IMG/VR virus record: IMGVR_UViG_3300045988_054439
Direction: 5' to 3' (one strand)
Source: a virus
DNA: 34,726 nt
Position numbers and translations under genes: made by a program. The notes under the pieces are model-generated. The model saw nothing but the letters and a program-made list of their open reading frames with translations. It did no database searches and was not told the origin of the DNA. Positions 1 to 34,726 of this stretch are shown here, piece after piece. Position 1 is the first letter of the stretch. Each line of letters opens with the position of its first letter.

Positions 1-99
1 ATTTTTTTTTGTTCTTCTCACACCAAAAAACGGTCTTATACATTTCTTTTTCCGCTTCTCGTTGTAACTCCAAACAAGACCGATTTTTCCAACAAGGTC
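1..99. repeat. Terminal direct repeat. Bases 1-99 are identical to 34628-34726, either a circular-assembly overlap or terminal redundancy. Unique length is 34,627 bp.
   Basis: Direct comparison of both window ends (attttttttt gttcttctca ... tttttccaac aaggtc). Confidence 0.95.
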
Positions 100-1290
100 T
101 TTTATTTTTTTGCAGCCGAAAACTGTATTCACGACGGTGTCACCAGTCAAGCAATGGTCGTTCTCCTTAACCACTCGATCATCCCCTGCCTTGTCGTCCC
201 AGCGATACAGCCCAAACTCGGCAATGCTGTCAACGCAAGAGCGGTGAATTTGGATATTGCCAGCGTGCAGATATACAGACACCCGGCGGATACCATCAAG
301 GACTGTGTTGTCGGCCTTAATAACCTTAAAGCCCCGCTGCCGCAGCGCTGCAATGAATGAAGCCGCAGACGGGTCAACAACAACCTTTCGGATTTTATAT
401 CCATCAGCCAGCTGCTCCACATCGTCGCAATACTGCTCGTCTGTCCTCTGCACGGCCTTTTGACGGCCATTATAGTAGAACTCCTTAACCCTTGTCGCTT
501 TTGAGCCTAAAACGCACCACAGGCCAGCAGAAAACGGATTTTGCGTGCCGTAGTCGATAGAGATATAGTATTCGCCATTCGTTGGCACATCGTCGGTTAT
601 ATTGTCCTCGCCAAAATCGTAAACCAAGCCCTCGGCAACGCACCACTCACCGAGAATATACCGCCGGTAGAACACTCCGGTGTACATTGTTTCATATCGC
701 TGGAGTATGTGTTCTGTTAGCGCCGGGTTGTCCCGCAATTCAAAATGCAATCGCAAGGCATTGTGCGACTCCGGCTGGCTCACCCACTCGGTATAGAACC
801 AGTGCTGCGGGCTGTCCGGGTTGCAGTTGAACCAAAACTTTGACCCATCGACAGAGCAGCGGGAGAGTGCCTGCTCTACGAACGACCGGGGCATTAGCGC
901 CACCTCATCCAGCAGAACACCAGCCAATGTTCGGCCTTGGATGAGTGTAAAGCTGCTTTCGTCTTTGCCGCCGAATATTTCAAAATAGTTCTCGATCCGG
1001 CCACAACGAACCACCAGCAGCTTGTCACTCCGACGCCATTGTATGTCCATTCGTTCCCTCGGCTCGGTCATTCCAAGATACGGCACAATTATGTTTTTGA
1101 CGGCGCTGTCAACAGTCTTTCCGCAAATGCCAAAGCGCTGCCGGTCGTACCGTCTCATAGCGTCCTCGACAAATGCGTACATCATCCAAACGGTCTTACC
1201 GGAACGGATGGCGCCGTCAGCAATCAAGGCGTCAAAGCGCGTGTAAGGAAACGCCAATATTTGCAGCTGCTTATCACTCAACCCAGGCAT
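1..1290 (-). CDS. terL: Terminase large subunit, N-terminal fragment. The N-extein runs 1290->154 (379 aa) and is fused to the N-half of a split intein (153->1, continuing at 34627->34490).
   Basis: ATG 1290 overlaps the terS stop. The frame is open to base 1 and stays in phase with 34627 across the junction. Motifs: Walker A GAIRSGKT, Walker B VLLDEVA, nuclease Asp motifs ISIDYG and VVVDPS, ending KENDH. It then continues CLTGDTVV (intein block A, Cys1 codon 153-151). This ORF is absent from the ORF track because it runs off the window edge. Confidence 0.88.
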   Translation of the reverse strand, partial: MPGLSDKQLQILAFPYTRFDALIADGAIRSGKTVWMMYAFVEDAMRRYDRQRFGICGKTVDSAVKNIIVPYLGMTEPRERMDIQWRRSDKLLVVRCGRIENYFEIFGGKDESSFTLIQGRTLAGVLLDEVALMPRSFVEQALSRCSVDGSKFWFNCNPDSPQHWFYTEWVSQPESHNALRLHFELRDNPALTEHILQRYETMYTGVFYRRYILGEWCVAEGLVYDFGEDNITDDVPTNGEYYISIDYGTQNPFSAGLWCVLGSKATRVKEFYYNGRQKAVQRTDEQYCDDVEQLADGYKIRKVVVDPSAASFIAALRQRGFKVIKADNTVLDGIRRVSVYLHAGNIQIHRSCVDSIAEFGLYRWDDKAGDDRVVKENDHCLTGDTVVNTVFGCKKIKDLVGKIGLVWSYNEKRKKKCIRPFFGVRRTKKN

Positions 1291-1663
1291 TGTTGCCCTC
1301 GCTCCGTTCTATCGCTCTCGCTGTTTCTTTCAGCGCCAAAGTCAGCGGGTCATCCTCCCGCCTATCAACCGCAATAGTGTACTCGCCTTGGTCGCTTTGG
1401 CCAAGATACTGCTTACCGAGCCAAATGGCCATATTTGCGTTCTTTTCCGCCAGCCGAAACTGGGCACGGCGCAGGGAAATTTTCCCCACGCCCCGCTTTT
1501 CTTTGAATATTTCGGAAAAACTTTGCTCGTATGTCCGCTTGCACCAGCTGTTCAGCGTCTTGTCTGTCACACAGAACCAGCCGCAAATCTCTTCTTGCGT
1601 GCATTGCAGGCCGCAGAGTTTTTCAAATTCTTCTTGATCTATTTCTTTTCTTGGCCTTGCCAT
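1274..1663 (-). CDS. terS: Terminase small subunit (HTH type)
   Basis: 129 aa, lying directly upstream of and overlapping terL. The N-terminal HTH-like segment (EEFEKLCGLQCTQEEICGWFCVTDKTLNSW) and a basic helical core are typical of small terminases. Confidence 0.8.
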   Translation of the reverse strand: MARPRKEIDQEEFEKLCGLQCTQEEICGWFCVTDKTLNSWCKRTYEQSFSEIFKEKRGVGKISLRRAQFRLAEKNANMAIWLGKQYLGQSDQGEYTIAVDRREDDPLTLALKETARAIERSEGNNAWVE

Positions 1664-1677
1664 TTACTCACCCCTCA

Positions 1678-2955
1678 TTATTTCCTCATATTTGCTTTTT
1701 TTTTGTAAAATTCAAAGCCATAAACCAATTCTTTTATATAATTTGGGACAATTTTAATTTTAGGACTTTTCAAAAGCTTTTCAAACATTTCCGGTGTCGG
1801 TATTCCAGTTTGACCATCAAGCTGAACGCACAACCAATGAGAGTACATTTGTGTCCCTGTTAATTCTTCAATTTCTTTCGCTTTTATGCCAGTTGATTTT
1901 AGCCATTTCGTAAACTTCAATCTATCTTGTGGCGAATCGCTCCTTTCAAAGTTCCCAAAAATGACGGGCTCGTAAGAATCAAAAATTTCTTTTGAATCCA
2001 TTATGTCTACAAAACTTTTGCTTCTTAAAAATTTAGAGCTTCCTGCGTTTTGATAAATAGCTTTGAAACATCCAGCGGTTCCAGACTTTTCCATCATTTC
2101 GGTTGCTTCAACTTTTTCTCCGTTGTATATGTGTTCAAGATTATATTTATTTATCTTAAAGCCTTCTACGCCCTCACATCCGCAGCAAGTCATACTGTCG
2201 CCCATTGTTCGCAACCTATTTTCGGCGCACATAAAAGTAAGACCCAAGCTGTGGCATTTTTGCTTTATCGCTTCATAATCTTTTACAAGAATATGCTTCG
2301 GATATACAAAATCTCCTCCGACTTTAATAAGCCCGGGTTTAGGCTTTACAAACTTCATGTTTTCAATCGTAATTCCATAAATTCCGATTTTTGCATATTC
2401 GTCAAGACTTTGCATTACCTCTTCAAAGACTTCGGTCATATACGGCTGAATGCGGACAACAACCCTTTTACAATTACCAACAAGTTTTCTAAGCATTTCA
2501 AGTCTTTCGGAATATTTCGGGGCACCTTTTTCCAAAACATCATATTTTGAACAAACCATTGAAACCTGAACAACTGCATTGCATTGCCTCAAAAGGCTCA
2601 AGTAATCATCTTCGCAAATAAGTTTTCCCTTTGTGCTTACTATAAACGGATATTTTGTTTCTGCAAAAATCTTTAATGCTTCATAACTTATTCTATGGAC
2701 TTTTTCGCAGGGCTGAAATGGGTCACTCATTCCGCCCCAGTGCAACGGAATGCCCCAATCGCACCACTTTGTAACTTCGCTTCTCTTGCCGTTTATAAAA
2801 TCTTTTAATTGCTTCAAGCAGTTATCTTTTTCAATTTTTGTTATATCGCTTTTCCTTTGAACAAAACAATATTTGCAGGCATGCGAACATCCTTTATATG
2901 TATCAATTCTGACAGGGCAATCGCACAAAACAATTTGAGAACCACAAGCAATCAT
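1678..2955 (-). CDS. Radical-SAM protein of the SPL / 'DNA repair photolyase' (COG1533)-like type, with a C-terminal HTH-like extension
   Basis: CxxxCxxC cluster motif GCSHACKYC near the N-terminus. Motif order (WGGMSDPFQP, IVSTKG, VQVSM, RIQPYM) resembles SplB-like enzymes. The C-terminal ~90 aa read IKAKEIEELTGTQMYSHWL...GIPTPEMFEKLL. GC is about 33-35% in hand-counted lines, against more than 50% in the flanks. Confidence 0.7.
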   Translation of the reverse strand: MIACGSQIVLCDCPVRIDTYKGCSHACKYCFVQRKSDITKIEKDNCLKQLKDFINGKRSEVTKWCDWGIPLHWGGMSDPFQPCEKVHRISYEALKIFAETKYPFIVSTKGKLICEDDYLSLLRQCNAVVQVSMVCSKYDVLEKGAPKYSERLEMLRKLVGNCKRVVVRIQPYMTEVFEEVMQSLDEYAKIGIYGITIENMKFVKPKPGLIKVGGDFVYPKHILVKDYEAIKQKCHSLGLTFMCAENRLRTMGDSMTCCGCEGVEGFKINKYNLEHIYNGEKVEATEMMEKSGTAGCFKAIYQNAGSSKFLRSKSFVDIMDSKEIFDSYEPVIFGNFERSDSPQDRLKFTKWLKSTGIKAKEIEELTGTQMYSHWLCVQLDGQTGIPTPEMFEKLLKSPKIKIVPNYIKELVYGFEFYKKKANMRK

Positions 2956-2956
2956 T

Positions 2957-3526
2957 TTATAATACTCCCATGATCTTCAACAACTCTTTGCTATAAAACT
3001 CTTTTGTCATTTCTTTTATCTTGCCCTTAACGGCGTCCTCATATTGTTTCGGAAAACAAAAAGAAATTGAAAATTCTTCTCTTTGAAGTTTATTGTTGTT
3101 TGTCATACAGTTTTCGTCTTCAAGAAGTTCATCAATATAACTCAATTGTTGACCTTGTTCGTTCACTTCAAAGCCAAAATCAAAATCAAAATCACTAAAA
3201 TCAAGATCTGCAATTTCATCCGCCAGCAGGTCAAAGTCCCAGTCGCTCTCATTGCTCTTGTTATCCACCAACCGCAGGGCGTTCACTTGTTCGGGTGTCA
3301 AGTCGTCAACACAAACGCACGGCACCTCCTTCAGCCCCAGCTTCTTTGCGCCAAGGGCTCGGCAATGACCGATCACAATCACGCCGTCCTTATCTACAAC
3401 GATAGGCTGAACGAAACCATACTGCCGAATACTCTCGGCCACATTGTCAATTTGCGTTTGGTCATGCTTTTTAGCGTTCTTCTCATACGGCTTGATTGTA
3501 TCAAGCGCTCGCATTTCAACCTTCAT
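2957..3526 (-). CDS. ParB/Srx N-terminal-domain protein with an acidic linker
   Basis: Start chosen at MKVEMRAL (SD AGGAGG upstream). Carries ParB-N motifs (KPYEKNAKKH, GFVQPIVVD, IGHCRALGAKKLG) followed by DWDFDLLADEIADLDFSDFDFDFGFEV. No ParB HTH or dimerisation domain is recognisable. Confidence 0.75.
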   Translation of the reverse strand: MKVEMRALDTIKPYEKNAKKHDQTQIDNVAESIRQYGFVQPIVVDKDGVIVIGHCRALGAKKLGLKEVPCVCVDDLTPEQVNALRLVDNKSNESDWDFDLLADEIADLDFSDFDFDFGFEVNEQGQQLSYIDELLEDENCMTNNNKLQREEFSISFCFPKQYEDAVKGKIKEMTKEFYSKELLKIMGVL

Positions 3527-3573
3527 CAAAACGCACCTCCTAAATATAATTGTAGCAGAAAAGCCACCAAAAA

Positions 3574-3903
3574 TCAACTTTTTGGCGGCAAATGATAAAA
3601 CGCTCTGTATAATTCCTCCGCTGTGTCCAGGTTCTTGTCAGCGGTGTAGGCTTCCGTGGCGGCGGTGATCCGTTCCTCCAGCGCCAACGATTCTCGGCTT
3701 AAAAATTCCGCTTTCGACCGCAGCAGGGTGCAGTTGTACCGCAGCGCCTCTTTCTGCCGCTTCGCTGTTTCTTTGTCCATCAGCCCAGCACGGAATAGCC
3801 GATATATAGCCAGCAAGCCAATATACTCGGCACTGTCCGCTGCTGTCAGCCCTTTCGGTAAGATTTTGCCATCAGCGGCGGCTTTTTCTAAACTCTTGTC
3901 CAT
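3574..3903 (-). CDS. Hypothetical helical protein; first gene downstream of non-coding module M1
   Basis: 109-aa ORF with SD AAAGGAG before the ATG. No recognisable motif. Confidence 0.6.
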   Translation of the reverse strand: MDKSLEKAAADGKILPKGLTAADSAEYIGLLAIYRLFRAGLMDKETAKRQKEALRYNCTLLRSKAEFLSRESLALEERITAATEAYTADKNLDTAEELYRAFYHLPPKS

Positions 3904-4218: not shown

Positions 4219-5685
4219 CTAAAATTCGAGGATGTCGTCAAGGTCGATTTGGTCGGAATTGTCCTCGTTCGCCCACCAACGCTGATTTCCATAAACCGGA
4301 AACTTCTTGGGATATGGCTGCTTGACCCACCCGCTCATTGATTGGAGTATGAGCCCGATTTCTTGGCTTTCCTTTTTGGTGGGCTTTGAATATTCGCCCA
4401 TACGCAAAGCCTCCTGCCAAAGTTCAAGCACGCAAATCTCGGTCTTATTTTCCAAATAATCCTCGATCATACCAACACGGAAATCATCTTCTGTTGCTTC
4501 TGCCTGCTCCTTTCGAATGTCATCAATCAGCGACCGGTCAGCATACGGCAGCAGCTTGCCGGCCTTGTACAGTTCCAACGCTTCTGCCCAGCACTGGCGG
4601 ATGTCGGCTTTGATTTGCTTCTCATTGTCAAACAACTCATAACCGCTTTGCTTCACCCGCACCGGATAGAACCGCCGGTTGCCGGTCTTATCCGTCAAAA
4701 ACTGCTCTTTGTTGGTCGTTCCTATGAATATACACTGCCGTGGGTGGTCGGTCACTCGCTTGTCGAACGGCATTCGGTAGCGATCATTTAACCGGGTAAG
4801 GTAGGACTTGACGGCTTCCTGCTCCTTCGTTCGTGTCATTGCAAGTAGTTCCGACACCTCGCAAATCCACGCACCCTCGATTGATTCAATTCCGCGCTGG
4901 CCGTCAAATTCGTTGACCTCTGTAAAATATTCGTCCGCCAAAGCAAGCCAGCGGATCAGCGTTGACTTGCCTTCTCCCTGCTTTGTGCCGATCAGCACCG
5001 GCATATCGTCGAATTTGCAACCTGGATTGTATAGCCGGTGAATACCGCCGGCAAAGATAAGGCGGCTGACTTCTCGGGTGTACGGCGTGTCCTCGCATTT
5101 CGTCCACTTTGCCAAGAAGCCGTAAATTCTCGAAACGCCGTCCCATTCCAATCCGTCCACAATCTCACGCACTGGGTGGTACTCGTGGCGAGCCAGCACA
5201 ATGCGCATAGCGTCCTCGCTTTTCTGCACGCTGTGGAAGCCGTATTTTTTCTCAATATACCGCCGCATTTCTGCGTCGTCAGCGTCCGTCCACCGTTCCG
5301 CCACGCCGTTGACGGTCTTTTCCGGGCTATATGTAAGCAAATTAAACTTTATGCCGGAGAACCTCGGGTCACCCTCGAGCACCTTAACGAAATTGTCTAT
5401 TGACGCCACCGGACGGCCATTTGCGTCAAAGTCCAAGTCAACGCCGCAGCGCAGCTTTGCATTCGTCCGCTTGTACTCTTTTGCAAGGCTCTCGTTTGCC
5501 TTGTTAAACGCTTTTAGAACGCTCTTGAATTCCTGCTGAATGCCGAATTCCTTTGCCTTTATCGCCATCAACGCCGCCAGCCTTGCTTGGTCTTCCGGCC
5601 GTTCCTCACATAAGTCCAGCAGCAGATCGGTGTTCAGCAGCTGCTCCGGCGTCGCAATCACTTGTATCTGTTCATCTGTAAGCAC
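4219..5685 (-). CDS. VirE-family primase-helicase (P-loop NTPase)
   Basis: 488 aa with Walker A in VLIGTKQGEGKSTLIRWLA and a downstream ICEVSEL Walker-B-like motif. The overall pattern matches virulence-associated protein E / D5-type phage replication proteins. Confidence 0.8.
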   Translation of the reverse strand: MLTDEQIQVIATPEQLLNTDLLLDLCEERPEDQARLAALMAIKAKEFGIQQEFKSVLKAFNKANESLAKEYKRTNAKLRCGVDLDFDANGRPVASIDNFVKVLEGDPRFSGIKFNLLTYSPEKTVNGVAERWTDADDAEMRRYIEKKYGFHSVQKSEDAMRIVLARHEYHPVREIVDGLEWDGVSRIYGFLAKWTKCEDTPYTREVSRLIFAGGIHRLYNPGCKFDDMPVLIGTKQGEGKSTLIRWLALADEYFTEVNEFDGQRGIESIEGAWICEVSELLAMTRTKEQEAVKSYLTRLNDRYRMPFDKRVTDHPRQCIFIGTTNKEQFLTDKTGNRRFYPVRVKQSGYELFDNEKQIKADIRQCWAEALELYKAGKLLPYADRSLIDDIRKEQAEATEDDFRVGMIEDYLENKTEICVLELWQEALRMGEYSKPTKKESQEIGLILQSMSGWVKQPYPKKFPVYGNQRWWANEDNSDQIDLDDILEF

Positions 5686-16992: not shown

Positions 16993-17021
16993 ATTATAGC
17001 CGATTGCAGCGGTCTTGTCAA
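16993..17021 (-). promoter_or_regulatory. Perfect-consensus sigma-70 promoter driving the candidate ncRNA
   Basis: Minus strand TTGACA (17021-17016), a 17-nt spacer, then TATAAT (16998-16993). Confidence 0.75.
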
Positions 17022-19119: not shown

Positions 19120-19302
19120 TTAATTTTCGCTGCTCTCTTGCAGCTTATTGATTTCCGCTCTGTATTCTGCCCGCTGCTGACGGATCGGCGCATACTCCTC
19201 CTCAGACAGCGCTCCGTCTGTAAACTTCAAACACAGATAATCCGTCTCGGCAAGCTCTGCCTTAAGATATGCAATGCGGCTTTCGGTTTCAATGTCCATC
19301 AC
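19120..19302 (-). CDS. Small helical protein adjacent to the tail fibre genes
   Basis: 60 aa, coupled to the upstream fibre gene. Confidence 0.5.
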   Translation of the reverse strand: MMDIETESRIAYLKAELAETDYLCLKFTDGALSEEEYAPIRQQRAEYRAEINKLQESSEN

Positions 19303-19967
19303 TTTGCCACCCCCAAAATCTCGATTTGCGTTCCGGCGCCAATGGTCTTTCCGTTTGTCGGAAAAGACAGGGCTTTGATCGCACCGTAAGCCTCGACATC
19401 CCTAAAGATATTGAATGTTATGCCGCTTGCGTTCCATATCGTCTGTCCGTTCATTGAATTGGCCGCGTTGAAGTTGCTCGAAATATTGCTTTTGTTTGCT
19501 TGCACACGCACCATATTATCGGTGATCTCTGCTTCTGCCACGACGAAAGAGCCTTTTGTGGTGGCCGCCTCAAACCGGAAAGCGTTTGGCAACATACACT
19601 TGCTTGTGTATGAGTTGATGTACACAGATTGATCGCCAGCGGCAGAATTTGCAGCGCTCCCAGCCACCGCCATACGCAGTCTGATCTTGCGGCAGGGCTT
19701 GGCTAAATCCCATCTTTGGCTCGCTGTGGTGTCAGTGTCAAAAGTCTTTGAAAACACCTGCTCCCAAACCTCGGCAGCAGGTGCAGAACCTCCACCGCCG
19801 AACCAAGGCAAGTCAGCCCAAGCCGTCACGCCGTCTCCGACCTTCTCCTTGCCCTCGGTGCTGTCAATGCCTCGCTCGCCTTTGTAAAGAACCGGGTTTG
19901 CAGCCGCCCAGTTTTCGCTCGTATCAATTCGAGTGGTGAACACGCTGTCCTTTAAGTAAACATTCAT
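19299..19967 (-). CDS. Tail fibre / receptor-binding protein with an Mtd-N / HylP-like N-terminal motif
   Basis: DTSENWAAANPVLYKGERGIDSTEGKEKVGDGVTAWADLPW. Confidence 0.65.
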   Translation of the reverse strand: MNVYLKDSVFTTRIDTSENWAAANPVLYKGERGIDSTEGKEKVGDGVTAWADLPWFGGGGSAPAAEVWEQVFSKTFDTDTTASQRWDLAKPCRKIRLRMAVAGSAANSAAGDQSVYINSYTSKCMLPNAFRFEAATTKGSFVVAEAEITDNMVRVQANKSNISSNFNAANSMNGQTIWNASGITFNIFRDVEAYGAIKALSFPTNGKTIGAGTQIEILGVAK

Positions 19968-30688: not shown

Positions 30689-30717
30689 ATTATACAGCAA
30701 GCATATTTTTTTGTCAA
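30689..30717 (-). promoter_or_regulatory. Perfect-consensus sigma-70 promoter in front of the scaffold and capsid genes
   Basis: Minus strand TTGACA (30717-30712), a 17-nt spacer, then TATAAT (30694-30689). Confidence 0.7.
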
Positions 30718-32061: not shown

Positions 32062-33633
32062 TTATTCCGCGTTTTTTTCTTTTATTTTCTTGGTGATCTT
32101 GTCAAGCAGCGCCTGCAACTCCTCATCTGTCAAGGCGTCCAAGTCGTCATCCTGCCCGCTTCCGGTTGGCTCATTGCCTTGCTGGCCAACATCCTGCTCC
32201 GCCTGCTGCCCTGCCGGTTCTGCTCCATCAAGGGTGGGGTCGTCGTCAACCTCGATCCTGTCGCCCTCTTCGTCCCTCTTTCTCTTGATGATCTCATCCG
32301 CCTGGTCGCCGATACCCAGCAAGAAGCAGACCTGCTCGGTGATCGTTTCATTGTCCAAATACTCGGCAGCGGAAAGAACCATCTGCATTTCTTCGGATTG
32401 ATTTACAATCTTTGACCGCTTGAAACTGACATTGTCTGTAATTTCAGCAAGCTGCAAAATCTTTTCAACAAAGTTCGTCACGCAATACTCGAACATATCC
32501 GTCTTGCTGTCAAGAGGTTGATACGCCGCCCGGATTTCTGTGGCAGTTTTTGAGTTGGCCGAAATGTCGAGAACATTCAAGCACATAAAGTCCTCATACA
32601 GTCGCGCTTTGATTGTGGCTATCGCAGCGTCGGACGCGCTGATCGGCGCTTCCACTGTGTGGGCTTCAACCTGCGCGCCGTCGTCGTCGATGTGCGCAAC
32701 ATGCATTGTGCGCAGCCGCTCCAAGAACCGCTGGTCGTCCTCATCGTCCATTCCGCCAGCGTTTGTGATTGCCCAGTAAATCATGTTGCCCTCGTCGACA
32801 TTGTTTACGAGGTTGCTATTGATAAGGTCAAATGCGTCAAGCGTGCCCTGGCGTCCAACCAACTCCGACTGCTTCTTGTCGTTTCCATAAAGCGGAATGA
32901 TTGGAAATTCCGGGTAGTTTTCAAAGTCGTAAATCTCGGTTCCGTCAGCGATAGAGTGACGCACCTTCATCTTGTAAGCGGTCTTCGGCTGGATAATCAA
33001 GATCTTTTCGTTTGTACCCGTCGGGCTTAGGTATTCCGTGTAGCCGTCCACTTCATACAGTGTTGCCCGCAGCGGTTTATCATCTGCAAGTTGCCAAAAC
33101 CGAATGCCAGCCCGCAGCGCTCCGCTCTCCTCATCAAACAGCGGGACAAACTCCGTCACATCGAACACATCCAGGTGGTCAAGGTTCCAAAAGCCAAAAG
33201 CAACGCCACCAATCAAAGCAGACTTGCCGATCTTCTGCAATTGGTAGTCGAAGTCATAAGAACCGCCGTGCAGTTCGCCCTGTCCGCCGCCCAGCTTTTC
33301 CTTTGTCTTTTTGTCGCCGAAGATTGCACCGTTGCCAAGCAGGTACTGATTCTCCTGCGTGATTGCGAAGTTGAAAAAGTTGCTTGTGATCTTGTGATTT
33401 GGTGCCCATCTGTCAACATGAGCGTCACCCCACAAGTCATAGATCAACTTCTCGTAGTGCATTATTGTTGGGTTCAGTCCACGATAATACTCCCACGCCC
33501 GGCAAGCAGTCCGATAAAGCTGCCCGGCCTTGTGCTGGCGGATAGCCGAAAGGACAAACGCCTGCCGTTTGCCCTCAAATGCTCCGCACGCTTCAAGGTC
33601 TTGATAAGTCAAGTAAGTAGAAATTGTAACCAC
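32062..33633 (-). CDS. Portal protein (SPP1 gp6-like)
   Basis: 523 aa, between terL and the MuF-like gene, with an acidic C-terminal tail. The start (GTG 33633) is uncertain. Confidence 0.85.
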   Translation of the reverse strand: MVTISTYLTYQDLEACGAFEGKRQAFVLSAIRQHKAGQLYRTACRAWEYYRGLNPTIMHYEKLIYDLWGDAHVDRWAPNHKITSNFFNFAITQENQYLLGNGAIFGDKKTKEKLGGGQGELHGGSYDFDYQLQKIGKSALIGGVAFGFWNLDHLDVFDVTEFVPLFDEESGALRAGIRFWQLADDKPLRATLYEVDGYTEYLSPTGTNEKILIIQPKTAYKMKVRHSIADGTEIYDFENYPEFPIIPLYGNDKKQSELVGRQGTLDAFDLINSNLVNNVDEGNMIYWAITNAGGMDDEDDQRFLERLRTMHVAHIDDDGAQVEAHTVEAPISASDAAIATIKARLYEDFMCLNVLDISANSKTATEIRAAYQPLDSKTDMFEYCVTNFVEKILQLAEITDNVSFKRSKIVNQSEEMQMVLSAAEYLDNETITEQVCFLLGIGDQADEIIKRKRDEEGDRIEVDDDPTLDGAEPAGQQAEQDVGQQGNEPTGSGQDDDLDALTDEELQALLDKITKKIKEKNAE

Positions 33634-33648
33634 CCTTTCATCGTGTTG

Positions 33649-33888
33649 TTATTTGGCCACGCTCAAAATAAGCGGACTTTCTTTTTTGCCGATTTTTTTG
33701 CGTAAAATCGTATTCACAAAATATCGAATATCATCCATGCAGTTATGAACGATCAAGCCGCCGTTAACGGAAAAGTTGTGCGTGCCGATCACTTCCATGT
33801 TATACACGTCTTCATTTTGCACACTCTCGATTTTTAGCACCTTTACAAGATTGGCAGAACTTCGTTTTTTGGTACTTGTTCGCGACAT
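33649..33888 (-). CDS. terL: Terminase large subunit, C-terminal fragment: the split-intein C-half (49 aa) plus a 30-aa C-extein
   Basis: SD GGAGGGG and ATG 33888. Reads ...VYNMEVIGTHNFSVNGGLIVHN (Asn codon 33744-33742), then Cys+1 (33741-33739) and CMDDIRYFVNT. This completes the TerL nuclease motif ENDH-x-MDDxRY. Confidence 0.8.
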   Translation of the reverse strand: MSRTSTKKRSSANLVKVLKIESVQNEDVYNMEVIGTHNFSVNGGLIVHNCMDDIRYFVNTILRKKIGKKESPLILSVAK

Positions 33889-34444
33889 ATTCCCCTCCAC
33901 ACCTTTCACAGATTTTTGTCACATTGTCAAAGCCCATCTTCCTGCGATATGCAGATTTGCATTTGTTTGAGCAAAAGCGGTTTTTGTTCTCGCCATACGT
34001 TGCCTTTGTCTCAAATTCTTTTCCGCAGAAGGTGCAACGATAAGACTTCAAGGGCATATTTTTGAAAGTTTCGATTGCGTGTTGCGAGTGCCATTTTTTG
34101 CCCTCTTCGCTGCCATGCCATTTAGACGCTTTTGGTCTCGCATTTTTTGCGAGGTTTTCCCTCGCCCACTCTCGTCTTTCCTCGCTCCACGAACTGCCAT
34201 GCAAGTTAGAATGTTCTTTCGCTGTCATCAGCACAAGGTTTTCGATTTCGTTGTTGTTCTTATCAAAATTCTTGTGGTGAACGTTGTACCCCTTTGGGAC
34301 TTCTGAGCCGTTGTAATACTCCCACACATAAACGTGAAGCCGTTTGTGTGTTTTCGCATTCAAAAAATATCCGGTTTTCTTATCTCTGCGGAACGACAAG
34401 CCGTCAAAGCAAGCGAGATCGCCGTCGTCAACATATTGAACCAT
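33812..34444 (-). CDS. Free-standing HNH homing endonuclease (HNH_3 type) with tandem C-terminal zinc-finger repeats
   Basis: SD GGAGGA (34457-34452) and ATG 34444. HNH motif VHHKNFDKNNNEIENLVLMTAKEHSNLH. Two CxxCG...FCxxxCK repeats. Confidence 0.85.
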   Translation of the reverse strand: MVQYVDDGDLACFDGLSFRRDKKTGYFLNAKTHKRLHVYVWEYYNGSEVPKGYNVHHKNFDKNNNEIENLVLMTAKEHSNLHGSSWSEERREWARENLAKNARPKASKWHGSEEGKKWHSQHAIETFKNMPLKSYRCTFCGKEFETKATYGENKNRFCSNKCKSAYRRKMGFDNVTKICERCGGEYVANKYQKTKFCQSCKGAKNRECAK

Positions 34445-34489
34445 AGTTACATCCTCCGTGAATATTAATCTACAAATATTGTAGCGCAT

Positions 34490-34627
34490 TTAGTCCATAA
34501 TGTCAACGATTTTGCTTGATTGCGTTAGATATTTTGCCTTTACCCATCCTTTGTCGGTCAAAACTTTGTGATCTTCGGTGCATTTAATAACCTTGCCGTT
34601 TTCAAGCGTTATTTTCAAAATCGGTTG
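34490..34627 (-). CDS. terL: Continuation of the terL N-fragment: the last 45 residues of the split-intein N-half, plus the stop
   Basis: In phase with base 1 across the junction. Reads ...NQPILKITLENGKVIKCTEDHKVLTDKGWVKAKYL...IVDIMD then TAA (34492-34490). TEDH is intein block B. Confidence 0.8.
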   Translation of the reverse strand, partial: QPILKITLENGKVIKCTEDHKVLTDKGWVKAKYLTQSSKIVDIMD

Positions 34628-34726
34628 ATTTTTTTTTGTTCTTCTCACACCAAAAAACGGTCTTATACATTTCTTTTTCCGCTTCTCGTTGTAACTCCAA
34701 ACAAGACCGATTTTTCCAACAAGGTC
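34628..34726. repeat. Second copy of the 99-bp terminal repeat (identical to 1-99)
   Basis: Exact identity to the window start. Confidence 0.95.

Follow-up and report, generated by a model that had tools for sequence, protein, structure and literature searches.

Comparison with known fractured genes and terminase inteins

Fractured genes were defined by Dassa et al. in 2009, and a phage terminase is among their eight host enzymes (PMC2677866). The canonical split inteins of that collection have N-halves of 88-105 amino acids (aa) and C-halves of 33-54 aa, and the endonucleases associated with them are of the GIY-YIG or Vsr-like types only, fracturing by HNH endonucleases having been predicted but not observed (PMC2677866). 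In the current analysis we have examined the IMG/VR virus record IMGVR_UViG_3300045988_054439, a stretch of 34,726 nucleotides (nt) referred to here as the window, in which the gene of the terminase large subunit (TerL) is interrupted by an intein that is itself divided into an N-terminal half (IntN) and a C-terminal half (IntC), with an open reading frame (ORF) of an HNH endonuclease between the two. This is very probably a genuine fractured gene, from which a TerL of 409 aa would be produced by protein trans-splicing.

Like the fractured genes of Dassa et al., the locus is comprised of two co-oriented ORFs with a split intein at the break and a free-standing endonuclease ORF in between, and it also shares with them overlapping ORFs, an endonuclease gene that brings its own control elements and a terminase as the host. 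TerL residues 1-379 and 380-409 are encoded in their original order on two minus-strand ORFs about 0.9 kb apart, IntN ends the first of these and IntC begins the second, and the endonuclease ORF intervenes, which bears out the likeness to fractured genes claimed in the original prediction, made by a model from the sequence alone. Both TerL pieces are colinear with intact alleles of 409 aa and with the solved large terminase in PDB entry 5OE8. The two systems differ in the type of terminase and of endonuclease. The terminase of Dassa et al. is T4 gp17-like and has an atypical split (IntC of 122 aa), whereas the present one is PBSX-type with a canonical split of 96 and 33-49 aa, and in place of a GIY-YIG or Vsr-like endonuclease it is associated with one of the HNH_3 family.

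The same prediction knew of no such arrangement in a terminase. That claim does not hold, as a phage terminase is listed in PMC2677866 and the inteins GOS-TerL and AceL-TerL, natural split inteins of phage large terminases like the one described here, are trans-splicing inteins whose rates have been measured (review PMC11766414). Both of them come from cold or marine metagenomes and have an atypical split, with an IntN of 25-37 aa and an IntC of 104-115 aa, and GOS-TerL uses Ser1. Compared by published sizes, the atypical TerL split (IntN 25-37 aa, IntC 104-122 aa) is not seen in the window, where the halves are of 96 and at most 49 aa. The Lake Gatun phage terminase locus of the Dassa collection is probably the source of the GOS-TerL intein.

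The canonical split, with halves of about 90-105 and 35-50 aa, and the matching predicted fold are shared with the gp41-1, NrdJ-1, IMPDH-1 and Npu/Ssp DnaE inteins, but the sequence identity to these is only 22-30% and the extein and insertion site differ; the two halves of DnaE, moreover, are encoded far apart, and no endonuclease gene accompanies them. A close parallel is provided by the DNA polymerase B gene (PolB) of phage vB_PaeM_MIJ3, in which a free-standing HNH homing-endonuclease ORF separates the halves of a predicted split intein, and a related phage has a contiguous mini-intein; it differs in the host gene, in belonging to a jumbo phage and in its Ser nucleophiles, and it was reported without population-level or selection evidence (PMC6892783). 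In phage Aeh1 the essential NrdA gene is likewise split into two co-transcribed ORFs by an HNH homing-endonuclease gene, MobE, but there is no intein and the fragments form a non-covalent complex, according to the account of this system in PMC2677866. TerL inteins with in-frame HNH and out-of-frame EndoVII-like endonucleases have been described in actinobacteriophages, together with a model in which inteins are invaded by free-standing endonuclease genes, sometimes yielding split inteins (bioRxiv 10.1101/2025.01.02.630785). The HNH endonucleases of that survey are in frame only, whereas in TerLs of gut and environmental phages the present HNH_3 family is found in all three forms, in frame, out of frame and free-standing.

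GenBank already contains the ORFs of the window as three separate annotations, namely the "large terminase" DAV09462.1, the "homing endonuclease" DAV09465.1 and the "Hint domain C-terminal region" DAV09449.1. A literature search found no paper on this locus or on this combination of features. The distinguishing features are the canonical split in a PBSX-type TerL, the HNH_3 endonuclease and unusually rich population evidence.

Organisation of the locus

The window is a circular contig, bases 1-99 being identical to bases 34628-34726; this terminal overlap of 99 nt is the longest one, and the unique circle has a length of 34,627 bp. The join of the window ends is confirmed by the independent contigs L009-L017, in which the region is internal and contiguous. 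Three minus-strand ORFs lie across the circular junction, encoding TerL-IntN (475 aa), the HNH_3 protein (210 aa) and IntC with the C-extein (79 aa).

154..1290, minus strand: TerL N-extein, 379 aa, with Walker A GAIRSGKT, Walker B VLLDEV and most of the nuclease domain
1..153, minus strand: intein N-half, residues 1-51, with Cys1 at 153-151 and block A CLTGDTVV; matches TIGR01445
34493..34627, minus strand: intein N-half, residues 52-96, with block B TEDH; ends ...KIVDIMD
34490..34492, minus strand: TAA ending the TerL-N/IntN precursor, the same in 8/8 close IMG/VR loci
34478..34506, minus strand: promoter-like site of the sigma-70 type, TTGACA-17-TACAAT, overlapping the 3' end of IntN and the stop, 5' of the HNH gene
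34452..34457, minus strand: Shine-Dalgarno (SD) sequence GGAGGA, 7 nt 5' of the HNH ATG
33812..34444, minus strand: free-standing HNH_3 ORF, 210 aa and TGA; PF13392, with C-terminal CxxC zinc-ribbon repeats
33892..33898, minus strand: SD sequence GGAGGGG of the IntC ORF, inside HNH codons (CGGEY)
33742..33888, minus strand: intein C-half, 49 aa from ATG 33888; TIGR01443, blocks F and G
33649..33741, minus strand: Cys+1, 30-aa TerL C-extein CMDDIRYFVNTILRKKIGKKESPLILSVAK and TAA; colinear with PDB 5OE8
32062..33633, minus strand: SPP1-type portal gene, directly downstream; PF05133 on orthologous genes

The first ORF begins at ATG 1290, passes from base 1 to 34627 and is closed by TAA 34492-34490; its 379 TerL residues, ending ...VVKENDH, are followed by 96 intein residues from Cys1. 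The HNH ORF begins 45 nt past this TAA and extends from ATG 34444 to TGA 33814-33812. The third ORF, from ATG 33888 to TAA 33651-33649, consists of 49 intein residues ending ...GGLIVHN, Cys+1 (33741-33739) and the C-extein. The conserved core of IntC comprises 33 aa from GTG 33840 (VLKIESVQNEDVYNMEVIGTHNFSVNGGLIVHN) and contains blocks F and G. Bases 33812-33888 are shared by the HNH and IntC ORFs, with IntC in the +1 frame.

Two further properties of the layout are not stated in the original prediction. The HNH ORF is in the frame of IntN, from which the TAA alone separates it, and deletion of one A in the run of five at 33835-33831 (the A5 run) would fuse HNH to IntC. Since two small errors could thus mimic the layout, comparison with other assemblies was needed.

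Domain assignments and predicted fold

The 475-aa product has been assigned to the PBSX family of TerL (TIGR01547; 164 bits, cutoff 105, E = 5.6e-48) and to the N-terminal intein family TIGR01445 (42 bits, cutoff 24.5), and the 79-aa product to the C-terminal intein family TIGR01443 (21.4 bits, cutoff 15.6). The middle ORF matches PF13392, HNH_3 (E = 1.2e-15, 57 bits, cutoff 24.8), with the motif HHKNFDKNNNEIENLVLMTAKEH; its zinc-ribbon matches are weak and under the Pfam cutoff, and among PDB chains the HNH protein has, by sequence, insignificant zinc-finger matches only. The three TIGR assignments and that to HNH_3 lie well outside what chance would give.

When the two TerL pieces are spliced in silico, the resulting protein of 409 aa matches Terminase_6N and Terminase_6C and aligns with a large terminase of solved structure, 5OE8/5OEA (E = 5.6e-117). 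No break is seen across the junction in the alignment with 5OE8 (query ...vkendhCmddiryfvntil, against ...VKQNDHQLDADRYFVNTIL), and the C-extein is colinear with the 5OE8 stretch ...NDHQLDADRYFVNTIL, from which it follows that the intein sits within a strongly conserved motif of the nuclease domain. In the RNase-H-like nucleases of TerL this motif contributes a catalytic acidic residue.

The hallmarks of class 1 inteins are present, namely C1, T73-x-x-H76 (TEDH), the terminal H-N and C+1, and they are invariant in eight aligned alleles, the inteins of which go down to 55-60% identity to that of the window over the aligned region. An IntN of 96 aa and an IntC of 49 aa (from ATG 33888) or 33 aa (from GTG 33840) are canonical split-intein sizes, and 96 and 49 aa lie inside the natural ranges of 88-105 and 33-54 aa (PMC2677866). 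The joined halves were modelled with AlphaFold2 (AF2) as a HINT domain (pLDDT 86, pTM 0.81); the model is of an artificial fusion of the halves, with an alignment of four contiguous mini-intein relatives. Its best matches in the PDB, by template modelling (TM) score, are mini-inteins and fused split inteins, led by NpuDnaB (0.88/0.92) and Ssp DnaB (0.88-0.90), and the scores with the NrdJ-1 fusion, NpuDnaE and gp41-1 are 0.83, 0.80 and 0.72-0.84 respectively. DnaX, DnaB, NrdJ-1 and gp41-1 inteins are also among the matches of a sequence search with the intein.

The main identifications of the original prediction have thus been borne out: a PBSX-type TerL, confirmed by both TIGR01547 and 5OE8, two Hint halves, each above its profile cutoff, an HNH endonuclease ORF, intact splicing residues (Cys1, TxxH, HN and Cys+1) and halves of natural size. 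All of its coordinates were correct on recheck of the ORFs and of the terminal overlap.

Recurrence in independent and diverged contigs

A search of IMG/VR with the HNH protein has identified 11 loci at 97-99% identity. The TAA and the +1 shift are identical in all of the 8 close IMG/VR loci examined at the junctions, although spacer and ORFs alike contain substitutions that set these loci apart from the window and from one another, examples being TAAATG, TAAACG and TAAATGAGA. The exact proteins of 475, 210 and 79 aa are present on contigs from several independent collections (NCBI, JGI/IMG, ENA and Logan), and the cluster of the N-precursor at 90% identity comprises 397 members.

The three-ORF layout is retained in diverged lineages, represented by L046, a metagenome-assembled genome (MAG) of Acutalibacteraceae, and L052, with about 70-79% aa identity, and by L001 and L004, with about 50% identity in IntN. 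Homologous lineages have the stop of IntN at the position seen in the window, but the spacer of L046 and L052 is of 44 nt, one shorter than in the window, so that the IntN and HNH frames differ, and it contains additional stops. IntN and HNH overlap in the other two, by 14 nt (from the HNH ATG) in L001 and as ATGA in L004. The frames of IntN, HNH and IntC in the diverged lineages are 1/0/1, 1/2/0 and 2/2/0. Read through the HNH region, the frame of IntC meets 5 stops in the window and 5-9 in these lineages.

The same fractured TerL, together with the structural module, is also encoded near the end of a scaffold of 822 kb (L058, ERZ28564499 scaffold_2, 799322-819954), where the module adjoins a different replication module with PolA, a SNF2 helicase and a D5 primase. 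The explanation is a prophage, modular recombination or a chimeric scaffold.

Selection on the three ORFs

The ratio of nonsynonymous to synonymous substitution rates (dN/dS) is quoted only where dS is defined, dS being saturated in most of the deep comparisons. Within the close group the ratio is 0.053 for IntN, 0.063 for HNH and 0.031 for IntC with the C-extein, at a dS of 0.14-0.33, and for IntN of the window against L046 it is 0.08. These values indicate that all three ORFs are under strong purifying selection in the split state. The low ratios, together with the invariant catalytic residues, exclude a fresh pseudogene or a neutral relic.

Alleles of the insertion site and putative homing

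A search for TerL homologues, which number in the thousands, has revealed three length classes at the insertion site. Proteins of about 405-413 aa are without an intein, those of about 533-542 aa contain a contiguous mini-intein and those of about 472-489 aa stop after IntN as in the window. The empty alleles that fall into the 90% cluster of the window are of 409 aa, which is the predicted length of the spliced product; they are 96-98% identical to the window exteins and read KENDH-A-MDDIRYF. When one of them, from the human gut (L054), is compared with the window by blastn, homology ends at about 155 and restarts at 33738. The inserted block therefore corresponds, within end-trimming, to the intein and the HNH gene, plus a change from Ala to Cys at the +1 position. 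A Cys follows the NDH motif as Cys1 of the intein in 17/17 intein-bearing alleles inspected. At +1, the occupied alleles of which the C-extein was read all have Cys, and 4/4 intein-less alleles have Ala.

Contiguous mini-inteins are found at the same site in alleles of 539-542 aa and are 68-79% identical to the halves of the window. In phages with an empty or a mini-intein allele TerL is followed directly by the portal gene and the HNH gene is absent; it is missing even from phages with a TerL 96-98% identical to that of the window and with 88-90% nucleotide identity in the flanking genes. The HNH gene is therefore not required for packaging and has the behaviour of a mobile gene for an endonuclease.

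A mosaic is seen in P0013, an N-precursor of 475 aa in which the nuclease domain and IntN are 95-97% identical to those of the window and the ATPase domain only 51%, which places a recombination breakpoint between the domains, beside the endonuclease-bearing intein. In P0061, P0065 and P0066 IntN is 79% identical to that of the window and the adjacent nuclease domain 54-62%. The histories of intein and extein are thus decoupled, which fits homing or recombination. In its HNH domain, its presence or absence at a fixed site and this decoupled history the gene has the traits of HNH homing endonucleases. When the locus was compared by blastn with 50,697 GenBank phage records, the only match was one of 99 nt at 77% identity in Lactobacillus phage CL2; by this search no cultured relative is available.

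Expression signals

The sequence GGAGG 5' of the HNH ATG is conserved in all the lineages. Upstream of it, the promoter-like TTGACA-17-TACAAT at 34506-34478 has 11/12 consensus matches and is one of 4 sites in the genome with at least 11/12; at the homologous position L046 and L052 have a perfect TTGACA-17-TATAAT (12/12). The site is absent from L001 and L004, in which start and stop codons overlap instead, an arrangement that suggests translational coupling. The HNH gene is probably provided with a promoter of its own, as judged from these consensus matches.

Perfect TTGACA-17-TATAAT sites also occur at 30689-30717 and 16993-17021 on the minus strand. On that strand, 11/12 or more is reached only by these two and by the site 5' of the HNH gene. 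One of the two lies just 5' of the scaffold/capsid genes.

An ATG directly after the TAA, at 34487-34489 on the minus strand, gives a version of the HNH protein of 225 aa, which is the one used in GenBank DAV09465.1. At this position L009 has ACG, and in the sister lineages the spacer contains stops or a change of frame, which makes ATG 34444 with its SD sequence the likelier start. The start of IntC, GGAGGGG-aat-ATG, is conserved in L052 and in L009 and L012 of the close group, and different upstream starts of IntC are found in other lineages. The IntC ORF is given a length of 79, 63 or 57 aa by public gene callers.

Proposed mechanism and alternative explanations

The host is a siphovirus-like phage of the human gut with a genome of about 34.6 kb, in which a class 1 intein interrupts TerL between ENDH and xMDDIRY and is itself split at the canonical endonuclease-insertion loop. 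We infer that three polypeptides are made, namely TerL(1-379)-IntN(96), the HNH_3 protein of 210 aa and IntC(33-49)-Cys+1 with the C-terminal 30 aa of TerL, translation of the last starting at the SD-ATG that lies within the 3' end of the HNH ORF. The precursors of 475 and about 79 aa would be expressed from the packaging operon, and the C-precursor and HNH possibly also from the internal promoter. IntN and IntC would then associate into the HINT fold and splice in trans, with release of the intein halves, through an N-S acyl shift at Cys1, trans-thioesterification to Cys+1, cyclisation of the terminal Asn and an S-N shift. The TerL so formed would have 409 aa (...ENDH-CMDDIRY...), and its nuclease domain would regain the C-terminal helix with the conserved D-x-x-R-Y motif. 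The HNH protein is the putative homing endonuclease of the element; its substrate would be the intein-less TerL allele (ENDH-A-MDDIRY) of a co-infecting phage or of a prophage, with ...GAGAACGACCAT-GCN-ATGGATGAT... as the candidate target, and recombinational repair of the cut would spread the whole cassette.

The layout proposed in the original prediction, with products of 475 and 79 aa yielding a TerL of 409 aa, has gained comparative, selection and structural support, from which we infer trans-splicing itself. The further suggestion that DNA packaging is gated on splicing is speculative. Near-identical phages manage with an uninterrupted TerL, and the element therefore looks like a tolerated selfish insertion carried by the phage, rather than a regulatory invention.

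Several points weigh against the fractured-gene interpretation. Its support comes from sequences and models, the spliced junction peptide being a predicted one. The N-terminus of the C-precursor is uncertain, in view of the two candidate starts (ATG 33888 and GTG 33840) and the variable calls, and in L046 upstream starts of IntC are found only far off and with weak SD sites. The promoter is a consensus match only, the -35 hexamer of which falls in conserved intein codons. Block F has an Asn (VYNMEV) where many class 1 inteins have Asp, this Asn being common to all the alleles, the contiguous mini-inteins included.

An assembly or sequencing artefact would mean that the real phage has a contiguous in-frame HNH intein, disguised in the window by a miscalled TAA and an extra A. 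The single TAA between HNH and the IntN frame and the one-A deletion at 33835-33831 that joins HNH to IntC are in its favour, and contiguous in-frame HNH inteins of the same family do exist in the distant TerLs L037 and L038. This scenario, which the original prediction had named as its possible refutation, was checked by comparing assemblies and is excluded, since the stop and the shift recur in 8/8 close contigs that are mutually diverged at a dS of about 0.15, the exact proteins come from several independent collections, sister lineages have non-3n spacers, extra stops and other frames, and the IntC frame has 5 stops over the HNH region. By these comparisons the artefact is refuted in practice, with a negligible probability left to it. 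Translational recoding, by read-through of the TAA and/or a programmed +1 frameshift at the overlap of HNH and IntC, would instead give an intein precursor, contiguous or with HNH fused to IntC, that splices in cis; it would agree with the IntC frame being the HNH frame +1 in every fractured or nested locus examined and with the A5 run at the overlap in the window and in L052. The relation of the IntN to the HNH frame, however, varies (0, +1, -1), and overlaps or additional stops are found outside the lineage of the window; no conserved slippery site is seen, the tails of L046, L001 and L004 being different, and each ORF has its own SD sequence and start; the constant +1 is explained by descent from inteins with HNH overprinted on an open intein frame. 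Recoding is considered extremely improbable. The locus might also be a decaying intein with a dead TerL in a defective prophage, the ORFs being debris without a functional terminase. Internal stops in the endonuclease region are one route of intein decay proposed in the introduction of bioRxiv 10.1101/2025.01.02.630785, and one relative lies on the 822-kb scaffold. Decay is nevertheless very unlikely, given a dN/dS of 0.03-0.06 on all three ORFs, catalytic residues that are invariant across lineages with dS above 1, and many contigs of about 34-35 kb that match the circular contig of the window; no second TerL was noticed among the window ORFs scanned, which were a part of the total.

The two remaining alternatives accept the layout and assign different roles to its parts. 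The halves could reassemble without splicing, so that the intein would act as a dimerisation device for a two-chain TerL, comparable to the split NrdA of phage Aeh1; as mentioned in PMC2677866 for that protein, genes in pieces can work as non-covalent complexes, and the formation of the peptide bond is here a prediction. The strict conservation of Cys1, TxxH, the terminal HN and Cys+1 argues against this, as does the occurrence of Cys at +1 in occupied and of Ala in empty alleles, a pattern to be expected only with a splicing chemistry that is in use, and a HINT domain of about 130 aa left in the active-site helix of the nuclease would probably obstruct catalysis. A TerL working in two chains has, in our estimate, only a slim chance of being correct. 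HNH proteins that assist terminases, of the HK97 gp74 type, are known, and the HNH gene adjoins the terminase and portal genes, so that a role as packaging cofactor, instead of or besides that of a homing endonuclease, has to be considered. A gp74-like protein would be a required partner wherever its cognate terminase occurs; here, near-identical phages with an empty or mini-intein TerL have the portal gene directly 3' of TerL and no HNH gene, the HNH gene is always inside an intein, and its product matches PF13392 HNH_3 plus zinc ribbons. The cofactor role is accordingly held to be highly unlikely, and a fractured TerL gene with a homing endonuclease between the intein halves is preferred.

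In-frame, overprinted and fractured forms of the intein

The same HNH family has also been identified within TerL inteins of other architectures. In the distant TerLs L037 (1573-3613) and L038 (1906-3946) the HNH domain is in frame within one contiguous intein, a single ORF showing Intein_splicing at 302-636 and HNH_3 at 404-448. The junctions read ..KKDDHA/C...VIVHN/CDALRY, the slashes marking the intein ends, and the insertion point is apparently one residue off the site of the window.

In about a dozen distinct loci (L021-L025, L027-L031, L033, L035, L039, L042 and L049) an out-of-frame HNH is nested in a contiguous TerL-intein ORF, as exemplified by L022, with the long ORF at 1547-3781 and HNH at 2950-3603. 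The HNH gene of these loci is overprinted in the -1 frame relative to the intein, whose frame stays open for about 200 codons; by codon shuffling the chance probability of such an open frame is 0.003-0.02 per locus. Pfam assigns terminase and intein to the long ORF and HNH_3 to the overlapping ORF only. This out-of-frame version may be undescribed. One such nested locus, L049, is a contig of 4.9 kb (CAYONI010000043.1) binned in a Methanosarcinales archaeon MAG; it may belong to an archaeal virus, or else be viral DNA that was binned wrongly.

In all the nested and fractured loci the frame of IntC is that of HNH +1. This constancy fits descent of the fractured form from an overprinted form, after closure of the linker frame. 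The mini-intein of L050 (about 4400-4450), one of the contiguous alleles of 539-540 aa from pig and human gut, retains a CxxC remnant of the 3' end of HNH, TGTTCAAATCTTGTA, as against TGTCCATCTTGTA in L052 (about 5050-5100), which suggests that the mini-intein arose by deletion of HNH and not before its arrival.

It is tentatively proposed, as a possibility that we rate somewhat below even, that a single HNH_3 family at a single site in the nuclease motif of TerL preserves, in present-day phage populations, all the stages of the co-evolution of intein and endonuclease, and that the fractured form arose from the overprinted one and was then fixed. The series appears to comprise the empty site, the mini-intein with an HNH remnant, the in-frame HNH, the overprinted HNH and the fractured form. 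The fractured state would have come about by nonsense mutations in an unconstrained linker of the intein frame, after which the three genes would have been fixed as a unit under selection that has a promoter of its own. If this is true, the birth of natural split inteins becomes directly testable, and a new canonical split intein with Cys1 and Cys+1 is provided by a gut phage living at 37 degC.

The locus adds a well-supported natural split intein (canonical, Cys1/Cys+1, in the PBSX-type TerL of a human-gut phage) to a short list. Hundreds of related sequences are recorded, and unusually, matched empty, mini-intein, nested and fractured alleles occur within related phages. They offer a natural system for the study of the origin of split inteins, of whether the split is selected or tolerated, and of the expression of the endonuclease gene, and the intein is a candidate orthogonal tool for trans-splicing. 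The picture of DNA packaging is unchanged by these findings, which introduce no new principle.

Other features of the window

No tRNA genes were found in the window, and in Pfam scans of 10 further ORFs of the window there was no match bearing on the fractured TerL. An ORF of 222 aa in the tail region (19299-19967, minus strand) has a weak match to Mtd_N of 24.7 bits, below the cutoff of 26.3, and its product is a possible receptor-binding protein.

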